From Anaerolineales bacterium (GTDB taxonomy: Bacteria > Chloroflexota > Anaerolineae > Anaerolineales > RBG-16-64-43): 32,820 nt of DNA. Under the pieces are notes generated by a model that worked only from the letters and a program-made list of their open reading frames with translations, searched no databases and was not told where the DNA came from. This document shows positions 2,447 through 9,278 of the stretch, one piece after another. The position numbers were made by a program, and so were the translations under genes. Location of the stretch: positions 1 to 32,820 of the forward strand of contig JBJYXS010000338.1 in assembly GCA_046260075.1 (NCBI GenBank), written 5' to 3'. Positions within the stretch are counted from its first letter, which is position 1. Every line of letters starts with the position of its first letter.

Positions 2447-5218
2447 TCAATCCATAATCGCCATGAAGGTTTCGGCGACCTGCGGATCGAAGTGCTTGCC
2501 GGATTGCGCGATGATGTACTCGCGCGCCTGCTCTTTCGTCCAGGCTTGGCGGTATGGACGGTCCGACGTCGTGGCGTCCCAGACGTCGACGACGGCGAAG
2601 ATCCTCGCCGCCAAGGGGATCTGTTCGCCCTTCAGACCGCGCGGATACCCCGTCCCGTCCCATTTCTCGTGGTGGCAATAGGGGATGTCGAGCGCTTGGC
2701 GGAGGTAGATGATCGGGGAGAGCATCTCGTAAGCGTACAGCGGGTGGCGGCGCATGATATCCCACTCTTCGTGGGTCAGGGCGTCGCGTTTGAGCAGGAT
2801 GCTGTCGGGGATGCCCATCTTCCCCATGTCGTGCAGCAGCGCGCCGCGGCGGATGTGGACGATATGCGATTCCTCGACTCCCATCGCGCGCGCCAACCGT
2901 TCGGTCATTTCGGTGACGCGTTCGGTGTGGCCTTCGGTGCCCTCGTCGCGCAGGTCGAGCGCCCGCGACCAGCCTTCGATCGTGGTGTCGTAGGCGAGAT
3001 TCAGCTCGGCGTTGGAACGCTGCAGGTCGTCGAAGAGCGCGGCATTATCGATGGCGATGGCGGCCTGGACCGTAAGGGATTCCAGGAAGTCGAACCAGTC
3101 CGCGTCCGCCGCCAGAGTCGTGCGGAAGAACACCTCCAGCACGCCCTTCACCTGTCCTTTGACGATCAGCGGCGCGGCGCAGTACGACTTGAACTTCTCG
3201 GAGGAGAATTTCGGCGAGCGGGCGAGGCTCCCCACGTCCACTTCCAGGTTCTGAATGAAGATCAGCCGCCGTTCATGCGCCGCCTGGCCGGCGTATCCTT
3301 CGCCCAGGCGCAGATGGGTGTGGTGCAGGGCGTCGGAACGGAAGCCCTTTCCGGCGACGAATTCCAGAAGCGTGGTCTTGGAATTCAGCAGTAAAACGTC
3401 CACCGCGTCCACGTTCGAACGCCGCGATACTTGGTCGAGCAGGATTTCCAGCGTGAAGTGCAGGTCCAGGCTGGAGCTGATGGTTATATCGATGTCGCGC
3501 AATGTCTGCAGCCGCTCGAGCCGGCGCTGGGTTTCGTCGTACAGGCGCAGGTTTTCCAGCATGGGAGCGACCTGGCTGCCGAGGGTGCGCAGCAACAGGA
3601 TGTCGGCGTGAGGGTAAAAATCGTCCGGATCGCGCCGCCCGAACAGCCAACCCCCGCGGGTTTTTCCGCGGGTTTTCAGGGCGTTGCCCAACCGGACCCT
3701 GGAGATGGGGGCGGCGGCGGCCCGGTCGGCCGGCCGGTACCGGCCGGCCGACCGGATCAACGTTTCCATTTCCCCGAATTCAAGGGGCTTTTCGGGGAGG
3801 TTGATTCCATCCGCGTAAAACAGCGCAAAACCGTTTTCCGTTTTCTGGTACAACGCCGATTCGCGGATCAACAGGCTGGGCGTCACGTCGCGGCCGAGCA
3901 GGCGGATCAGCAGCGCGGGTTCGAACGCCGCCGGCAGCTGCAGCGCGAAATCGCGGACGATATCCTGCGGATTGTGGCGGGCTCCGTAGGCCATGGTGTC
4001 GAACCATTGCTGGAAGCGGGCCCGCAGGCCCGGCGCGGCGATGACAAACACCAGCGTCACCAGCAGGCTGAAAGCCAGCGATTCGTCGGCGAGGCGCAGG
4101 GATTGGCTGGCGATGGAGAACACGAAGATGATCGCCAGGCTGTACAGCAGGATGAAGCTGTACAGGCTCAATGCCCGGTTGGCGCGGAATTCCAGACCGC
4201 CCAAATTGCGTTTATATATCGCATAAAAATAGAACGCCGGCAGTAAGGGGATGGCCAGATAGGTTGCGATCAGGGCCGTTTCGGGCGGGGGATTCCCGCG
4301 GGTCAAGGCCGGGGTGATCACGAACAGCAGGCCGGGCAGGAACGCCAATCCGATGCCGAGGAAAATCAACCGCAGCGCCAGCCGCTCCGGCGCGGTGAGA
4401 CGGGCCAACAGGCGATACATCAGCAGCCCCAGGCTGCCGAGGATGGCGATGATCAGGCCCAAATAAAACATCAGCCCGGGCAGTACTTGGAATATCTCGA
4501 GGACGCCGAGCGTCGCACCGGCGATGTAGAACAGGAGCAGGAAGGGCCGCCGTTGGGAGCGGAAAAGCGGGCTGGGGATTTCCAGGTGGAGGTGGATGTA
4601 GAGCGGCGCGATCAGCCAGGTCAGCATATGGATGATCAGGGACGAGTAGGGGACGAGCGACAGCGACATGCCGACCGCCAGATAGATTGCGGTGATGTAG
4701 TTGAAGATGACCAGCAGCAGCCACCGCCGGTCGCGCGGCCGGATGAGGATCAGCACGGCCGTTCCCGCCATCCAGAAGGGCAGATAGACCAATGCTTGGA
4801 TCAGGTTTTCGAACCGGTCGGAAAAAGTGGGATGGACGAGGATCCACTGCCCGGCGCTGGCGACGCCGTCGTGCAGGAAGGTTATGGTGGCCGAATCCCC
4901 CGGACGGTATCCGGTGAACGGGACAACATTGGGGTTCTGTAAATACTGCTCGAGCGTCATCCCGCCGACCGACAGCAATTGGTCGCCGACCTGCAACGTC
5001 GCTTCGTTTTCCAGGCACCATTGCAGTTGATTGTCCTTGTTGTTCTGGCAGTCGGCAAATCCCGTGACCGTCCAGTTCGCATCGTACTCGACGCCCGGAA
5101 TCGGGGAGAGGTACGTGGCGGCGACGGCGTAAAACAGGCAGATCAGCAACGCCAGGATCGACACCAGCAACAGGAATGCATCGACGAATTGCTGCAGGCC
5201 GGGTCTTTTATCATCCAT
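2447..5218 (-). CDS. Multi-pass membrane sensor with a PDZ-like extracytoplasmic segment, a GAF domain and a C-terminal HD-GYP domain (predicted c-di-GMP phosphodiesterase)
   Basis: 923-aa ORF. It has an N-terminal TM helix followed by LQVGDQLLSVGGMTLEQY...GDSATITFLHDG, which looks PDZ-like. About ten hydrophobic helices follow. The GAF-like block reads GEGYAGQAAHERRLIFIQNL...APLIVKGQVKGVLEVFF. The HD-GYP signatures are LLHDMGKMGIP and HHEKWDGTGYPRGL. Its ATG shares one base with the stop of the upstream gene (TGATG at 5216-5220). Confidence 0.9.
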   Translation of the reverse strand: MDDKRPGLQQFVDAFLLLVSILALLICLFYAVAATYLSPIPGVEYDANWTVTGFADCQNNKDNQLQWCLENEATLQVGDQLLSVGGMTLEQYLQNPNVVPFTGYRPGDSATITFLHDGVASAGQWILVHPTFSDRFENLIQALVYLPFWMAGTAVLILIRPRDRRWLLLVIFNYITAIYLAVGMSLSLVPYSSLIIHMLTWLIAPLYIHLHLEIPSPLFRSQRRPFLLLFYIAGATLGVLEIFQVLPGLMFYLGLIIAILGSLGLLMYRLLARLTAPERLALRLIFLGIGLAFLPGLLFVITPALTRGNPPPETALIATYLAIPLLPAFYFYAIYKRNLGGLEFRANRALSLYSFILLYSLAIIFVFSIASQSLRLADESLAFSLLVTLVFVIAAPGLRARFQQWFDTMAYGARHNPQDIVRDFALQLPAAFEPALLIRLLGRDVTPSLLIRESALYQKTENGFALFYADGINLPEKPLEFGEMETLIRSAGRYRPADRAAAAPISRVRLGNALKTRGKTRGGWLFGRRDPDDFYPHADILLLRTLGSQVAPMLENLRLYDETQRRLERLQTLRDIDITISSSLDLHFTLEILLDQVSRRSNVDAVDVLLLNSKTTLLEFVAGKGFRSDALHHTHLRLGEGYAGQAAHERRLIFIQNLEVDVGSLARSPKFSSEKFKSYCAAPLIVKGQVKGVLEVFFRTTLAADADWFDFLESLTVQAAIAIDNAALFDDLQRSNAELNLAYDTTIEGWSRALDLRDEGTEGHTERVTEMTERLARAMGVEESHIVHIRRGALLHDMGKMGIPDSILLKRDALTHEEWDIMRRHPLYAYEMLSPIIYLRQALDIPYCHHEKWDGTGYPRGLKGEQIPLAARIFAVVDVWDATTSDRPYRQAWTKEQAREYIIAQSGKHFDPQVAETFMAIMD

Positions 5219-6171
5219 CAGGCAACCGCAGTGATTTCCGGCGGAACCGGAATCCCAAGATTCTGCAATAGGTGCACCAATGGCACGATGTACTGATGGA
5301 TCACCGCGTGAAGCGGCGACGGATCGTCAAACGGCGTCTCTTTAAGGATCTTGCGCGCCTCCTGATAGCTTTGACACAATCGGTACATCGCATAGCTCAC
5401 GGCTCCGGAGCGGATCAGGATCTGCTGGGCGGATTTCAGGACGGCCGGATCGTCAACTTGAGTCCGGATGTCCCGAAACCGTTCCCGGTCGGGGTGGTCG
5501 GCGGTCAGTGCGTACAGGAACAACAGGTTGTTGCGTCCCTGTATCCAATCCGGATTGGCCGGAGTGTCAAGGGCGTCCTGGATGTCGTCGTGGATTTGGA
5601 TCGCGTCGCCGGTTATCGCCCCCAGCCGGCGGAGGCTCTCGATGGTTTTTTTCTTCGCCTTGCCGAGAATCCCGCCGATGTGCATGGCCGTGCCGAAATA
5701 CGAAGAGCTTTTCGCGTGGGTCACCTTCCAGTAATTCTCCTCGCCGGTGAGATTGCGCGCGTCGAGGTCCTGGCCGTAGGCCATGGTCAGCGCCATTTGC
5801 GCCAAGGCGTCCATCACCGCCGCCCGCCGGGCGGCGTCCACCGGGGCATTGGCGATGACGCGGAAGGCGATCGACTGGAAACCGAATGAGAGGTTGGCGG
5901 CCATGGCGTCGCCGATCTTGAGATGCTCCCCCCGCGGATCCTCATCCAGCATGTCGTCCACCAACAGGATGCTCAAGATCATGCACAGGATGGCGGCCGA
6001 TCCGGGAGCCACCGCCGATTCGTCGCCTCCCACCGCCCGGCAGGCGCGCAACGGCCATTCCCAAACCTGATGGGGCCGGGCGATATGCCGTTCGAAAATA
6101 TCCGCTATGGCCGGCCAGTCCGCCACTTCCGGCAGGTCCATGACCTGTTTCTTGACATCCTCTATATCCAT
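5218..6171 (-). CDS. Divergent polyprenyl-synthetase-fold protein. Candidate ComQ-like isoprenyl transferase by inference; otherwise a short-chain prenyl diphosphate synthase.
   Basis: 317-aa ORF. The first Asp-rich motif is LLVDDMLDEDPRG and the second is IQIHDDIQDAL. It also has AYGQDLD (GQxxD) and HAKSSSY (KT-like) blocks. The N-terminal GGKRxRP-type motif is degenerate (ERHIARP). GGAGGG lies 5 nt upstream of the ATG. The stop overlaps the start of the HD-GYP gene. Confidence 0.8.
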   Translation of the reverse strand: MDIEDVKKQVMDLPEVADWPAIADIFERHIARPHQVWEWPLRACRAVGGDESAVAPGSAAILCMILSILLVDDMLDEDPRGEHLKIGDAMAANLSFGFQSIAFRVIANAPVDAARRAAVMDALAQMALTMAYGQDLDARNLTGEENYWKVTHAKSSSYFGTAMHIGGILGKAKKKTIESLRRLGAITGDAIQIHDDIQDALDTPANPDWIQGRNNLLFLYALTADHPDRERFRDIRTQVDDPAVLKSAQQILIRSGAVSYAMYRLCQSYQEARKILKETPFDDPSPLHAVIHQYIVPLVHLLQNLGIPVPPEITAVA

Positions 6172-6245
6172 GGGTTCCCTCCGTCATAATTATGGTGAAA
6201 ACCGGCGATTTGGCAACAGGGAAAAACCGGCGGTCCGTTTAAAGT

Positions 6246-6275
6246 CCGTAGCGCGGAGAGCCGTCCGCGCTACGG
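6246..6275 (-). terminator. Perfect 12-bp GC-rich hairpin between the small ORF and the polyprenyl-synthase-like gene (candidate attenuator or partial terminator)
   Basis: CCGTAGCGCGGA (6246-6257) and TCCGCGCTACGG (6264-6275) are exact reverse complements around a 6-nt loop. On the minus strand the hairpin is followed by ACTTTAAAC and, about 20 nt later, by TTTTT. The U-tract is not canonical, so termination efficiency is uncertain. Confidence 0.4.
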
Positions 6276-6388
6276 TGAATTCCGCCTGGAAAGCGGCGCA
6301 TCCGGTGCTTTCTGCCGTCCCTGACCGTCGACCGGCCAAATCCCCCCTGGTCAGTCGCCTGATGCCGCAAGTTGTGATGGATTTGATC

Positions 6389-6532
6389 TCAGCGCCAGTA
6401 GTCCCAGCCGACCAGACTGGTGGCCTTCATTAATTCCTCTGGTTCCTCGATTTCGGTCAGGCCGAATAGCGCCTCAATTAAGGAGCTCTTTTCTTCCGAG
6501 CGCAGAAGGCTGTGGAATTTCTCAATGGACAT
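6389..6532 (-). CDS. Unannotated 47-aa acidic peptide with a Trp-rich C-terminus (candidate pheromone or RiPP precursor)
   Basis: Below the size cut-off of the ORF track. My translation is MSIEKFHSLLRSEEKSSLIEALFGLTEIEEPEELMKATSLVGWDYWR followed by a stop. AAGAGGAGG precedes the ATG, with a 6-nt spacer (GTTCGC). It sits in a 670-bp stretch with no other credible gene, on the same strand as and directly upstream of the polyprenyl-synthase-like gene. There is no independent conservation evidence. Confidence 0.55.
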   Translation of the reverse strand: MSIEKFHSLLRSEEKSSLIEALFGLTEIEEPEELMKATSLVGWDYWR

Positions 6533-6842
6533 GCGAACCCTCCTCTTTAAGCGTGTACAGGACGTGCTCTCTTTGGGCTTTACGGTCGATCCCGGACAGG
6601 ACGGAAGCGGGATATGGCTCGTTTACCCGCATGGGTTAATTATATGTCAATAATGAAAAAAGGCCACTTGACTTTCGGGGGAGGGGAGGGTGGAATAGCA
6701 GCGATTGGCGGCTTGCCGTCGTATGATGAAGCCTTACGAAGGTCACCCGCATAATCCGTGAAGGCTTGGGAAACCGGATTTCGCTGTTCCGCGGATGGCC
6801 GGTCTCGCAGCCCGGCTCCTCTGCGGGAGCGAGATGGAGATA

Positions 6843-7589
6843 TTACCCGGAATCCGCCTCGGCCAACAGATCGCGGGATCGTTCCAGCGGCCGGCCGTCG
6901 ATCGCCCGCACCCGGTATCCGAAGGAATCCAACAGCTCCAGACATTCCCGGTGGACGTTCCCGGAATGGGTGGAGAGAAAGATGGGCGGGCGCCGGCCGG
7001 CGAGGATCCGTCGGGCTCCCCGCAGCGCCAGGGCTTCGGCGCCCTCGATGTCGATTTTCAGCAGGTCCGGCGCGGGCGCGTCTTCCTGTTCCATCCACTC
7101 GTCTACTGCGACGGCGCGCACCTCCAGCGTCCCCTGTCCGCCGATCCGGCCCCGGGATGTGCTGGAATCCGGCTCGAAACGAATCGTCCCGCTCCGTTCG
7201 GCGACCGCCGCTTCGATCACGGTTGCGTTTTCGATCCGGTTTAGCTTCAGATGCCTTCGAAGGAAACCCGCGTTGCGGGGCAGCGGCTCAAAGGCGAACA
7301 CCCGCCCTGCGGCGCCGGCGGCGAAGGAGGAGATCAGCGTGTAATACCCGACGTTGGCTCCCAGGTCGTACACTACTCCGCCGGAGGGAACGGATGCGGC
7401 GAACAGGGCGGTTTTTCCTATTTCGTAACTTCCCAGCCAGTATCCGTGATTGCCGGATCCGACGATCCATTTCCTTCCCCGCACGGGGCCCTGCAGAATG
7501 GGCAGCACGGTCTGGGGCGGTATAAGCCTTAAGGGAAAGCGCAGGATTCTTCCGATCAGCGAGGCGTTGGAAATTCCGGTCCAGTTCAT
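6843..7589 (-). CDS. FkbM-family SAM-dependent methyltransferase
   Basis: 248-aa ORF with VYDLGANVGYYTL (SAM-binding loop), FAFEP and LLKIDIEGAE blocks, all typical of the FkbM family. AAGGAA lies 4 nt upstream of the ATG. Confidence 0.9.
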   Translation of the reverse strand: MNWTGISNASLIGRILRFPLRLIPPQTVLPILQGPVRGRKWIVGSGNHGYWLGSYEIGKTALFAASVPSGGVVYDLGANVGYYTLISSFAAGAAGRVFAFEPLPRNAGFLRRHLKLNRIENATVIEAAVAERSGTIRFEPDSSTSRGRIGGQGTLEVRAVAVDEWMEQEDAPAPDLLKIDIEGAEALALRGARRILAGRRPPIFLSTHSGNVHRECLELLDSFGYRVRAIDGRPLERSRDLLAEADSG

Positions 7590-7667
7590 ATCGTTCCTTG
7601 GATTCGTGCCGGCCGCGGCTGCGGGAGAATACCCGCCGGCCGGATCATTGGGAGCGACGCCGGCTCC

Positions 7668-8420
7668 TTATCCGGGCACGAGGATGTCTTGCAGGAAAAC
7701 CGCGACATCCTGCGCGCCGGTTTCGTCGGAAGCGTGAGCGGGGATCCGGTGGAAGGATTCCCTGCGCAGGATGACGTCCCGCAGCGGCACGGGATGCCCG
7801 GCCTCGGCCGACGCGCGGCGGACGAAGAGTGCTCTCTGGGTGCGGTGGCACGCCATCGCCGCCAACTTGCGGTCGAATACGGAATTAACGGGAACGATGA
7901 AATCCGCCGGATCGTCCCGGTTGGCCGACCGCTTGCGCGGGTGATCGTCGTAATCCGCGTTGAAGGAATACAGGAAAGGGATGCCGCCAAGCTGCGCCGC
8001 TTGGCATCCGGCACGGTGGGTCAGAAGGTGGGCCGGATGCCCGTACTCGCCGTTGGATCCGTGGGTGATCAGGACGTCGATCCCCATCGGGCTGAGACGG
8101 CGGAGGATTTCCGGGAGGATTTCCCGGGGCGAAGCGGCAAAGGGGTGCAATGCCCCGTCCGGTCCGACGTCCGGATCGCGGAACGGCAGGCAGTCCGCCG
8201 AAACGCAACCGAGGGCGCGAGCGGCGCAGCGCAGCTCGGCTTCACGGAAGTCGCCCAATTCCGCCCGCGGGCAGAGCGGCGGCTCCCCCGCCTCGCCTCC
8301 CTCGCCGCGGGTGCAACACAGGATCCTCACCTCGGCGCCGCGTTCGGCCAGCAGCGCCAGCGTCCCGCCGGCGAAAACCGTTTCGTCGTCGGGATGCGCG
8401 ACAAGGCAAAGGATCCTCAC
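7668..8420 (-). CDS. PIG-L/LmbE-family N-acetylglucosaminyl deacetylase
   Basis: Contains ILCLVAHPDDE and GHPAH motifs. The track ORF extends to the ATG at 8552. That extension adds a 44-aa Arg/Pro/Ser-rich tail and overlaps the upstream gene by 50 bp. I prefer the GTG at 8420 (VRILCLVAHPDDE), but the start is uncertain. Confidence 0.8.
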   Translation of the reverse strand: MRILCLVAHPDDETVFAGGTLALLAERGAEVRILCCTRGEGGEAGEPPLCPRAELGDFREAELRCAARALGCVSADCLPFRDPDVGPDGALHPFAASPREILPEILRRLSPMGIDVLITHGSNGEYGHPAHLLTHRAGCQAAQLGGIPFLYSFNADYDDHPRKRSANRDDPADFIVPVNSVFDRKLAAMACHRTQRALFVRRASAEAGHPVPLRDVILRRESFHRIPAHASDETGAQDVAVFLQDILVPG

Positions 8421-8502
8421 GGCCTGCTCACGCTTGCGGCATGCAGCAAACGGGCCGGGGGATTCGCTTCCCCGGCCCGCGGATGGCGGAGAATGCGGCG
8501 CG

Positions 8503-8964
8503 TCAACGGGATTTGCCTTCGACCGATTGGATCGCCTGTTCGGCCGTGACATTGGCGTACAGGACCGACATCAGGCCGGGCAGGTATTTATTCATCGTCA
8601 TGACGTTGGAATACACCACCTGGCGGATCAGGATGTGGTTCAGGTCGGTGCCCTCCACATCGATGCTGGTTTTACAGCGGATATCCCCGTCGCTCACGTC
8701 CATTTCGAAGTTGCCGATCACCAAACCGTAATTGGCGCGGGTGATGTATTCCATCGCCGCCTCGCGGCGTTCCTCGGGGGCGGGGTTGGGGCAGATGGAG
8801 TAGAAGATGAATTGCTGCTGTTGTTCCCGGGCCTGCGCGAAACAGGTCCATTTCCCGTTCTTGCCGGAAAAGCCGGTCCGCAGGATGGGCTTGCCTTCCA
8901 TCTCGGTGAAGGGCCAATCGTCTTCGCGTAAAAATTTTTTTACCGCCTCGAGTATCTTGCCCAT
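8503..8964 (-). CDS. YbjN-domain (type III chaperone-like) protein
   Basis: The start is set at MGKILEAVKKFL (ATG 8964), with AAGGA 6 nt upstream. The pattern WPF..., FIFYSICP..., EYITRANYGLVIGNFEMDVSDGDIRCKTSI resembles the YbjN family as I remember it. No profile search was run. Confidence 0.65.
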   Translation of the reverse strand: MGKILEAVKKFLREDDWPFTEMEGKPILRTGFSGKNGKWTCFAQAREQQQQFIFYSICPNPAPEERREAAMEYITRANYGLVIGNFEMDVSDGDIRCKTSIDVEGTDLNHILIRQVVYSNVMTMNKYLPGLMSVLYANVTAEQAIQSVEGKSR

Positions 8965-9278
8965 GAAAAATCCTTGTGGCTTCGACTCCTTGCGACGCAA
9001 CATTGCTGTTCGGCCCCGAGGCGGGCCGAACACCGTGTATAGGGAAGGATTTTATACGGAATGACGCACCTTAGCAACCTGCCGATCCTGCCGGCCGTAC
9101 CGCCCCGCTTTCCGCGGCGGGATCGGGCCGGGGCTGCCTAGTCGTCGTACGGGCGTCCCTCCCGGGGGCCGGCGGGAACGCACGCGGAGGAAATGCCGCC
9201 GTACGAAATCCGGGATGCCGACCGGATGTTCCGCCATACGTCCGTCACGGCAGCGGAAAGGGAAGGAAAAGAAGGCAT

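Follow-up and report, generated by a model that had tools for sequence, protein, structure and literature searches.

A short, strongly transcribed Trp-tailed peptide gene of Anaerolineales stands in a candidate ComX-like signalling cassette with a prenyl synthase-like enzyme and a predicted PDZ-bearing receptor

A 32,820-nucleotide stretch of DNA from an Anaerolineales bacterium (contig JBJYXS010000338.1 of GenBank assembly GCA_046260075.1; hereafter the window) raises the question of whether a 47-aa open reading frame (ORF), lying in the gap between the stop of an FkbM-type gene (6843) and the start of the next gene (6171), is a gene at all, and if so what its product does. A preliminary description of the window had singled out this unannotated ORF at 6389-6532, in a gap of about 670 bp, and had likened its product to ComX-type and other precursors of RiPPs, peptides that are made on the ribosome and modified after translation. 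The ORF runs from ATG to TGA on the reverse strand, as do the other features of this region described below, its translation is exactly the peptide that had been quoted, and the gap measures 671 bp. We show here that this gene, which we call X, is a real protein-coding gene under purifying selection, that it is transcribed as a short and abundant RNA, and that X, an adjoining enzyme gene (Q) and a gene for a membrane sensor are syntenic across phyla. Since a Trp-tailed precursor, an enzyme resembling trans-isoprenyl diphosphate synthases (trans-IPPS) and a polytopic receptor stand together, we consider it probable that they constitute a Trp-prenylated peptide signalling cassette of the ComQ/ComX/ComP type, in which X would be the ComX-like signal precursor.

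Homologs of X in six relatives preserve its length, start codon and stop codon, and the ratio of nonsynonymous to synonymous substitution (dN/dS, Nei-Gojobori) was 0.04-0.20 in 11 of the 15 pairwise comparisons; in the remaining four dS was saturated and gave no estimate. Each of the other five frames is interrupted by a stop codon in at least one of the six relatives. These results, together with the homologous small ORFs and the RNA contigs described below, place the ORF far above chance, and they bear out the conserved and synonymously biased frame that would be expected of the gene first proposed. Another metagenome contains a 96%-identical 47-aa protein, and the contig that carries it differs from the window at approximately 13 nucleotides within the ORF, approximately 11 of which are synonymous. 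The Shine-Dalgarno sequence AAGAGGAGG (6547-6539), separated from the ATG by the 6-nt spacer GTTCGC, had been rated among the best ribosome-binding contexts of the window. This site is indeed present, but the motif alone does not distinguish it: the octamer AGAGGAGG occurs only once in the window, yet is not statistically unusual by itself, with at least one match in 56 of 100 shuffles. What we count as significant is that AGAGGAG-GTTC-(N2)-ATG is unvarying in a DNA alignment of seven relatives. Searches of Pfam and NCBIfam with the X peptide returned no family, even at E values up to 1.

A combination of tblastn and an iterated hidden Markov model (HMM) run over all small ORFs identified 64 homologs of X in 52 loci. 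These homologs flank Q directly, on its upstream side, its downstream side or both, within approximately 50-1100 bp of it in nearly all loci, and often as two or three paralogs. The peptide of the window consists of a leader (residues 1-40) and a tail, G-W43-D-Y-W46-R, and an AlphaFold model contains three short helices (3-11, 17-26 and 31-40) followed by an unstructured segment (41-47), in agreement with the helical, leader-like N-terminal part that had been predicted. The two Trp residues of the aromatic tail, also noted at the outset, proved to be the hallmark of the family: M1, F6, W43 and W46 are the only invariant residues in an alignment of 58 sequences, with L22 nearly invariant. The W-x-x-W motif is present in 60 of 63 members, the other three having W-x-W or WWW, and in 27 of 60 the residue before the first Trp is Gly. 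A single residue follows the second Trp in the clade of the window, while the members from Thermoanaerobaculia continue as W-x-x-W-P-P with 10-19 more residues. The tails vary even across close relatives (WDYWR, WGYWR, WGYWA, WGYWM, WGKWG, WGIWM and WAAWH). A profile search of 5.8 billion proteins returned 150 members, all of them 'hypothetical' or unnamed and none with a Pfam domain, and scanning 1.84 billion representatives exhaustively with an HMM yielded at least 354 clusters at 50% identity (E ≤0.001); every member inspected had W-x-x-W or its W-x-W/WWW variant, some of them twice. X therefore belongs to an unnamed family of small proteins without a Pfam or NCBIfam model. One database protein (P0284, 273 aa) contains four tandem repeats, each ending in DTWGNWPP or DTWTNWPP, and could represent either a precursor with several cores or an artefact of assembly.

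The next gene downstream of X, which the preliminary description had passed over, encodes Q (5218-6171), a divergent 317-aa member of the trans-IPPS family (PF00348, E 6.9e-19) that databases label 'geranylgeranyl pyrophosphate synthase'. Its first aspartate-rich motif (FARM) is DDMLDED (72-78) and its second (SARM) is DDIQD (195-199). Across 46 members of the Q family the FARM, LVDDMLDEDPRG, is nearly invariant, and the SARM, in the context Q-[IV]-x-DD-x-x-D-A...PAxPDW, is intact in all. Other hallmarks of the chain-elongating synthases are changed: the region-I GGKRxR is replaced by W-x-x-P-x-x-A-C-x-A-V-G-G, and the RRG after the FARM becomes PRG. The NCBIfam matches of Q consisted of isoprenyl diphosphate synthase models and a few chance matches, all far below their cut-offs (approximately 76 bits against 450-600 for the synthase equivalogs; 76 against 468 for the best), and searches of the Protein Data Bank (PDB) by sequence and by fold found no more than 26% identity to any solved synthase structure. 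From these scores, the loss of GGKRxR and RRG and the low identity to solved synthases, we judge that Q is not an ordinary synthase; it is proposed to be a Trp prenyltransferase. Its structure model (pLDDT 92.6) is placed in the trans-IPPS fold by Foldseek. Its PDB matches include Ord1, an indole prenyltransferase, and Q is about equally distant from Ord1 and from the true synthases. As judged from the PDB search and Foldseek, this fold alone does not reveal whether a protein is a synthase or a peptide prenyltransferase.

A scan of a genome collection with Q returned 51 loci, which come mainly from Anaerolineales and other Anaerolineae and from Thermoanaerobaculia and other Acidobacteriota, with one from a cultured member of the Nannocystaceae. 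X was found in every locus with sufficient flanking DNA, and in all of the informative loci, 45 in number and drawn from Anaerolineae, Thermoanaerobaculia and Myxococcota, it adjoins Q. The loci have only X, Q and the sensor in common, and the arrangement of these three is conserved across the phyla. In one locus (L045, positions 3253-7569 of an Anaerolineales metagenome-assembled genome) a HisKA_3 kinase with the same PDZ and transmembrane (TM) input as the receptor of the window, an X homolog ending in PWFIW that fell below threshold in the initial scan, Q and a REC-GerE/LuxR regulator beside Q make up what is, by its predicted domains, a complete ComQXPA-like quartet. The conservation of X, a PF00348 enzyme and a membrane sensor across phyla, together with such ComQXPA-like relatives, supports the early comparison of the peptide to ComX-type and RiPP precursors. 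In Thermoanaerobaculia (L019, L020, L027-L031, L034, L035, L038, L040 and L043), two or three diverged X paralogs flank Q, for example with ...GDWAVWPP... upstream and ...GWAEWPP... downstream. In the cultured Nannocystaceae bacterium ST9 (Myxococcota; L046:6001-7466), Q is followed by two tandem X genes with two W-x-x-W motifs each, and this strain would be tractable for chemistry.

The third gene begins with an ATG that overlaps the Q stop codon and encodes a receptor of 923 aa (2447-5218). Pfam, a PDZ profile and a map of conservation and TM helices predict, in order, a first TM helix (TM1), an extracytoplasmic PDZ loop (aa 44-138, nt 4805-5089), approximately nine TM helices, a GAF-like module, a GAF domain (aa 585-724) and an HD-GYP domain (aa 752-914). 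The last of these matches PF13487 (HD_5) with an E value of 1.1e-40, has LHDMGK and HHEKWDGTGYPRGL in its translation, and is a predicted phosphodiesterase of cyclic di-GMP (c-di-GMP). When a profile built from 30 loop sequences was compared with the PDB, all 60 of the matches listed carried a PDZ domain (DegP/Q/S, RseP-type and others; best E 1.8e-6). Most family members have a conserved Cys pair (C-x6-10-C) in this loop, which suggests a disulfide and would fit an extracytoplasmic location. The TM helices that follow contain the conserved motifs FWLxGT, RPRDxRW, HLHL and YAIYKxxLGxLEFRANR; we rejected a site-2-protease-like role for the PDZ and TM region because there is no HExxH and the conserved motifs differ.

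The N-terminal part of the receptor, approximately 560 residues, is conserved beside Q in about 43 of 52 loci, whereas the C-terminal output is variable. It is GAF plus HD-GYP in the clade of the window, HisKA_3 plus HATPase_c (the ComP class) in L014, L015, L036 and L045, and a hybrid HisKA/HATPase/REC kinase in Thermoanaerobaculia and others; nine of the Thermoanaerobaculia loci also encode a REC-EAL protein. With HD-GYP in the one clade and REC-EAL in the other, two distant lineages would route the input to c-di-GMP degradation. Among close relatives, identity to the receptor of the window is 42-49% in TM1 and 39-44% in the PDZ loop, compared to 70-77% in the TM bundle, 78-79% in the GAF-like module and 88-89% in the output domain. 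The tail of X and the PDZ loop of the receptor thus vary over the same relatives, which points to a ligand-receptor pair.

Assembled metatranscriptomes revealed that X is the source of a short RNA of approximately 300 nt (6301-6621) that covers only this gene in five runs (X20, X22, X25, X26 and X27), at a depth up to 65 times that of its neighbours. The contigs are strandless, and the strand of the RNA was assigned from the gene. In two rhizosphere metatranscriptomes a single contig was recovered in each (6316-6621 and 6338-6618), with none on the flanking genes; in run X26 the contig 6301-6620 had a depth of 52.4, compared to at most 0.8 elsewhere in 4800-7700. A diverged variant of the transcript was present in a wetland run. 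The contigs end at 6618-6621 in all five runs, and in X26 the Illumina adapter begins directly behind position 6620. This means that a large number of cDNA inserts stop there, and it places the dominant 5′ end of the RNA at approximately 6620. The 3′ ends are spread over 6301-6338, and strain variation that breaks assemblies may account for them.

The preliminary description had expected a transcription start near 6630-6640, and the end at 6620 departs from this. It lies 19 nt downstream of a TATAAT hexamer and within the loop of a 5′-leader hairpin, GCGGG-N14-CCCGC (6607-6630), which shows covariation in three of six pairs among relatives, and it could be either an unusual transcription start or a processing site. 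The promoter that had been tentatively called on TTGACA (6650-6645) and TATAAT (6644-6639), hexamers that do abut as reported, survives in part. The -10-like TATAAT belongs to a block, ACATATAATTAA (6636-6647), that is invariant in the alignment of seven relatives, whereas the TTGACA positions vary (TTTACA, ACACA, TTCACA, CCACA). A conserved GAAAGTC box (6670-6676), approximately 25 nt upstream of TATAAT, is possibly a promoter or regulator site. A scan for consensus promoters called no sigma-70 promoter for X, its sole call being one upstream of Q, TTGCCA-16 nt-CATAAT (6189-6216), which matches the consensus at 10 of 12 positions, is conserved in relatives and would drive the Q-sensor operon.

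Between X and Q the alignment also revealed a GC-rich, terminator-like hairpin of 28 nt, CGTAGCGCGGA-CGGCTC-TCCGCGCTACG (6247-6274), with stems invariant in all seven close relatives and two variable loop positions. A T-run follows it in L002-L006 and is weak at most in the window, and the RNA contigs over X end upstream of it. A terminator scan called no canonical terminator, this hairpin included. Since the hairpin and then a conserved promoter lie between X and Q, it seems that X is transcribed separately from the two genes that follow it. A search of Rfam with 6100-6900 gave matches at chance level only, and a known riboswitch or small RNA (sRNA) in this region was rejected on these grounds.

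The mechanism we propose begins with the synthesis of X from a small gene of its own that is strongly transcribed. The three-helix leader would dock on the neighbouring Q. From a prenyl diphosphate bound at its FARM, Q would then alkylate one Trp of the C-terminal W-x-x-W or both of them, and the analogous pairs StheQ/StheX and PalQ/PalX make W46, the second residue from the C-terminus, the likeliest site. The lipidated C-terminal fragment would be released and exported by factors encoded outside the cassette and read outside the cell by the adjacent receptor, the fast-evolving PDZ domain binding the free C-terminus and the TM bundle the prenyl group. In the organism of the window the receptor would control its fused HD-GYP phosphodiesterase, so that accumulation of the peptide would alter c-di-GMP directly. 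Prenylation, the modified site, processing, export, the pairing of ligand and receptor, the sign of the output and the c-di-GMP output itself are all inferred.

The best-known counterpart is ComQ-ComX-ComP-ComA of Bacillus subtilis and other Firmicutes, in which a precursor with a Trp near its C-terminus likewise adjoins an enzyme of the trans-IPPS superfamily and a polytopic membrane receptor. The HisKA_3 kinase and LuxR-type response regulator found in relatives of the cassette correspond to ComP and ComA, and the faster divergence of the X tail and the receptor input resembles pherotype polymorphism. The cassette differs from ComQXPA in its phyla (Chloroflexota, Acidobacteriota and Myxococcota), in a gene order that puts X before Q, with separate promoters for the two, in an X family that is unrelated in sequence and has two invariant Trp residues (W-x-x-W), and in the true SARM of Q (DDxxD, compared to NDxxx in ComQ). 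Its receptor has an extracytoplasmic PDZ domain and a GAF-like module, and in the window it ends in GAF and an HD-GYP phosphodiesterase rather than a kinase, with no regulator; the kinase output is that of L014, L015, L036 and L045.

The nearest published report is a preprint of August 2026 on StheQ/StheX of Sphaerobacter thermophilus (bioRxiv 10.64898/2026.08.29.745113), which we compared with X and Q by its published description. This too is a trans-IPPS-fold enzyme beside a small protein in Chloroflexota, and StheX shares with X an ordered helical N-terminal part, a disordered tail with two Trp residues and a prenylated Trp second from the C-terminus, the position of W46; StheQ has the FARM spacing DDxxDxD of Q. 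Unlike X, StheX is 69 aa long, ends in WW-x and is encoded downstream of stheQ. Its enzyme partner carries a pseudo-SARM (N215), and a receptor is not part of what the preprint describes. In Paenibacillus alvei, PalQ/PalX/PalP (PMC10853753) likewise comprises three genes, for a histidine kinase, a precursor and a trans-IPPS-like Trp prenyltransferase; the Trp of PalX is at the C-terminal end and a preceding Gly is favoured, but the leader of PalX is of the NHLP type and its Trp is strictly C-terminal, whereas X represents a new leader family, most of whose members continue beyond the last Trp. Ord1 (PDB 9V4G/9V4J) shares with Q the all-alpha trans-IPPS fold, the first SARM Asp and a Gln one turn before it (Q192 and D195 in Q), but it farnesylates free tryptophan, not a peptide, and is approximately 20% identical to Q. 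The canonical synthases of geranylgeranyl, nonaprenyl and octaprenyl diphosphate have the fold, FARM, SARM, GQxxD and conserved Lys in common with Q; they differ in retaining GGKRxR and RRG and in lacking the obligatory linkage to X and a sensor, and Q falls below every one of their equivalog cut-offs. Our search of the literature turned up no account of the X family, the PDZ-bearing receptor or the HD-GYP-coupled version.

Several observations weigh against a ComX-like role. The case for prenylation of X is drawn from gene context, and no conserved gene for a protease, an exporter or a second enzyme was found when the cassette was examined for one across loci. X has neither a signal sequence nor a double-glycine site. 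In many members 10-19 residues follow W-x-x-W, so strict C-terminal recognition of the PalQ type would not hold across the family. There is no sensor homolog near Q and X in the Nannocystaceae locus, and the PDZ call holds at the profile level only, single sequences scoring below threshold in Pfam (E 0.0085-0.33). Furthermore, the SARM of Q (DDxxD) is intact, whereas ComQ and StheQ have pseudo-SARMs (NDxxx), and Q may thus retain chain-elongating activity, although Ord1 also keeps an Asp there. The first SARM Asp is used by Ord1 and, according to a review, by enzymes of the PalQ/ChrPC type (PMC13290415), so an intact SARM is compatible with peptide prenylation.

Among the other explanations, the one that fares best, though we regard it as unlikely, is that X is a prenylated RiPP with a mainly antimicrobial or membrane-active function, the sensor serving autoinduction or immunity as in lantibiotic systems. 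The gene context fits this equally well, bacteriocin precursors typically have very high transcript levels, as X does, and prenylated Trp peptides can be membrane-active (PMC13290415). However, genes for immunity, an ABC transporter or a protease are not among the conserved parts of the cassette, and the tight linkage to signalling outputs (kinase and LuxR regulator, REC-EAL, HD-GYP), together with the joint divergence of the X tail and the extracellular domain of the receptor, indicates a ligand-receptor pair.

We give still less credence to the idea that Q is a genuine chain-elongating synthase and X its small intracellular subunit or regulator, as in the heteromeric hexaprenyl and heptaprenyl synthases, with the Trp tail plugging or tuning the active site and the sensor linked for another reason. 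The known small subunits of heteromeric prenyl synthases are 140-250 aa long, compared to 47-70 aa for X. It is true that Q keeps both FARM and SARM and has true synthases as its best structural matches, that X has no secretion signals, and that StheX and StheQ form a stable complex (bioRxiv 10.64898/2026.08.29.745113). But Q does not have the region-I Lys/Arg motif that binds isopentenyl diphosphate and is below the cut-off of every synthase equivalog, and the mRNA of X far exceeds that of Q. A tail that is hypervariable save for its two Trp residues, and the frequent duplication of X (two or three paralogs per locus), fit substrates or pheromones rather than subunits.

Slightly less credible again is a scheme in which the Trp residues are modified otherwise than by prenylation, or not at all, X being an unmodified secreted or cytoplasmic ligand of the receptor and the isoprenoid made by Q serving another purpose. 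PDZ domains bind unmodified C-termini, and the receptor is predicted to have such a domain. Q is, however, the sole enzyme gene conserved with X across three phyla, and the characterised members of this enzyme branch that stand beside small Trp-tailed peptides all prenylate that Trp (PMC13290415, PMC10853753, bioRxiv 10.64898/2026.08.29.745113). Finally, that X is a chance open frame within a non-coding leader or sRNA region, as its shortness, the lack of any match to the models of annotation pipelines and the covarying hairpin in its 5′ leader might suggest, is refuted by the substitution pattern, with low dN/dS at dS up to saturation, and is opposed by the retention of frame, length, start codon and Shine-Dalgarno site, by homologs down to 20-30% identity across phyla and by the lack of a matching Rfam family.

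Upstream of X (6843-9033) lie genes for an FkbM-family methyltransferase (6843-7589), a PIG-L-family deacetylase and a YbjN-like protein, which were rejected as core parts because they are conserved in the nearest clade only (L002-L007); it is possible that they tailor the X peptide in that clade. Elsewhere in the window, the genes that were examined are of ordinary kinds (UDG, SLT/TPR, nitroreductase, radical SAM, GH18 and an ABC exporter approximately 20 kb away) and show no linkage to the cassette. The cassette also occurs, with a Q 52% identical to the Anaerolineae versions, on a contig that was assigned to a Promethearchaeota archaeon (L018) but is probably bacterial and mis-binned.

Prenylated pheromones of the ComX type were long thought to be confined to Firmicutes. 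The first enzyme-peptide pair from Chloroflexota was reported only in August 2026 (bioRxiv 10.64898/2026.08.29.745113), and the window points to a far larger unnamed family, of at least 354 clusters, which has its own precursor type, its own enzyme branch and, unlike the Sphaerobacter report, a recognisable cognate receptor. If our reading is right, X also illustrates that a highly expressed signalling gene can be missed or left unnamed by gene callers and annotation pipelines. Tentatively, and with appreciably less confidence than we place in the cassette itself, we suggest that prenyl-Trp pheromones with a W-x-x-W motif span the phyla Chloroflexota, Acidobacteriota and Myxococcota in soil, rhizosphere and wetland, that PDZ receptors read their free C-terminus, and that they have repeatedly been wired to c-di-GMP degradation, through a fused HD-GYP domain or a REC-EAL partner. 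If this is true, the family would be a source of new Trp prenyltransferases whose SARM is intact, for use in the lipidation of peptides, and an example of PDZ-based sensing of a lipidated peptide. It would also supply ligand-receptor pairs that can be tested for a part in cell-cell signalling, in phyla of soil and rhizosphere that are abundant but mostly uncultured, and the peptide signal would feed directly into c-di-GMP turnover, a direct coupling of peptide quorum sensing to a second messenger outside Firmicutes.

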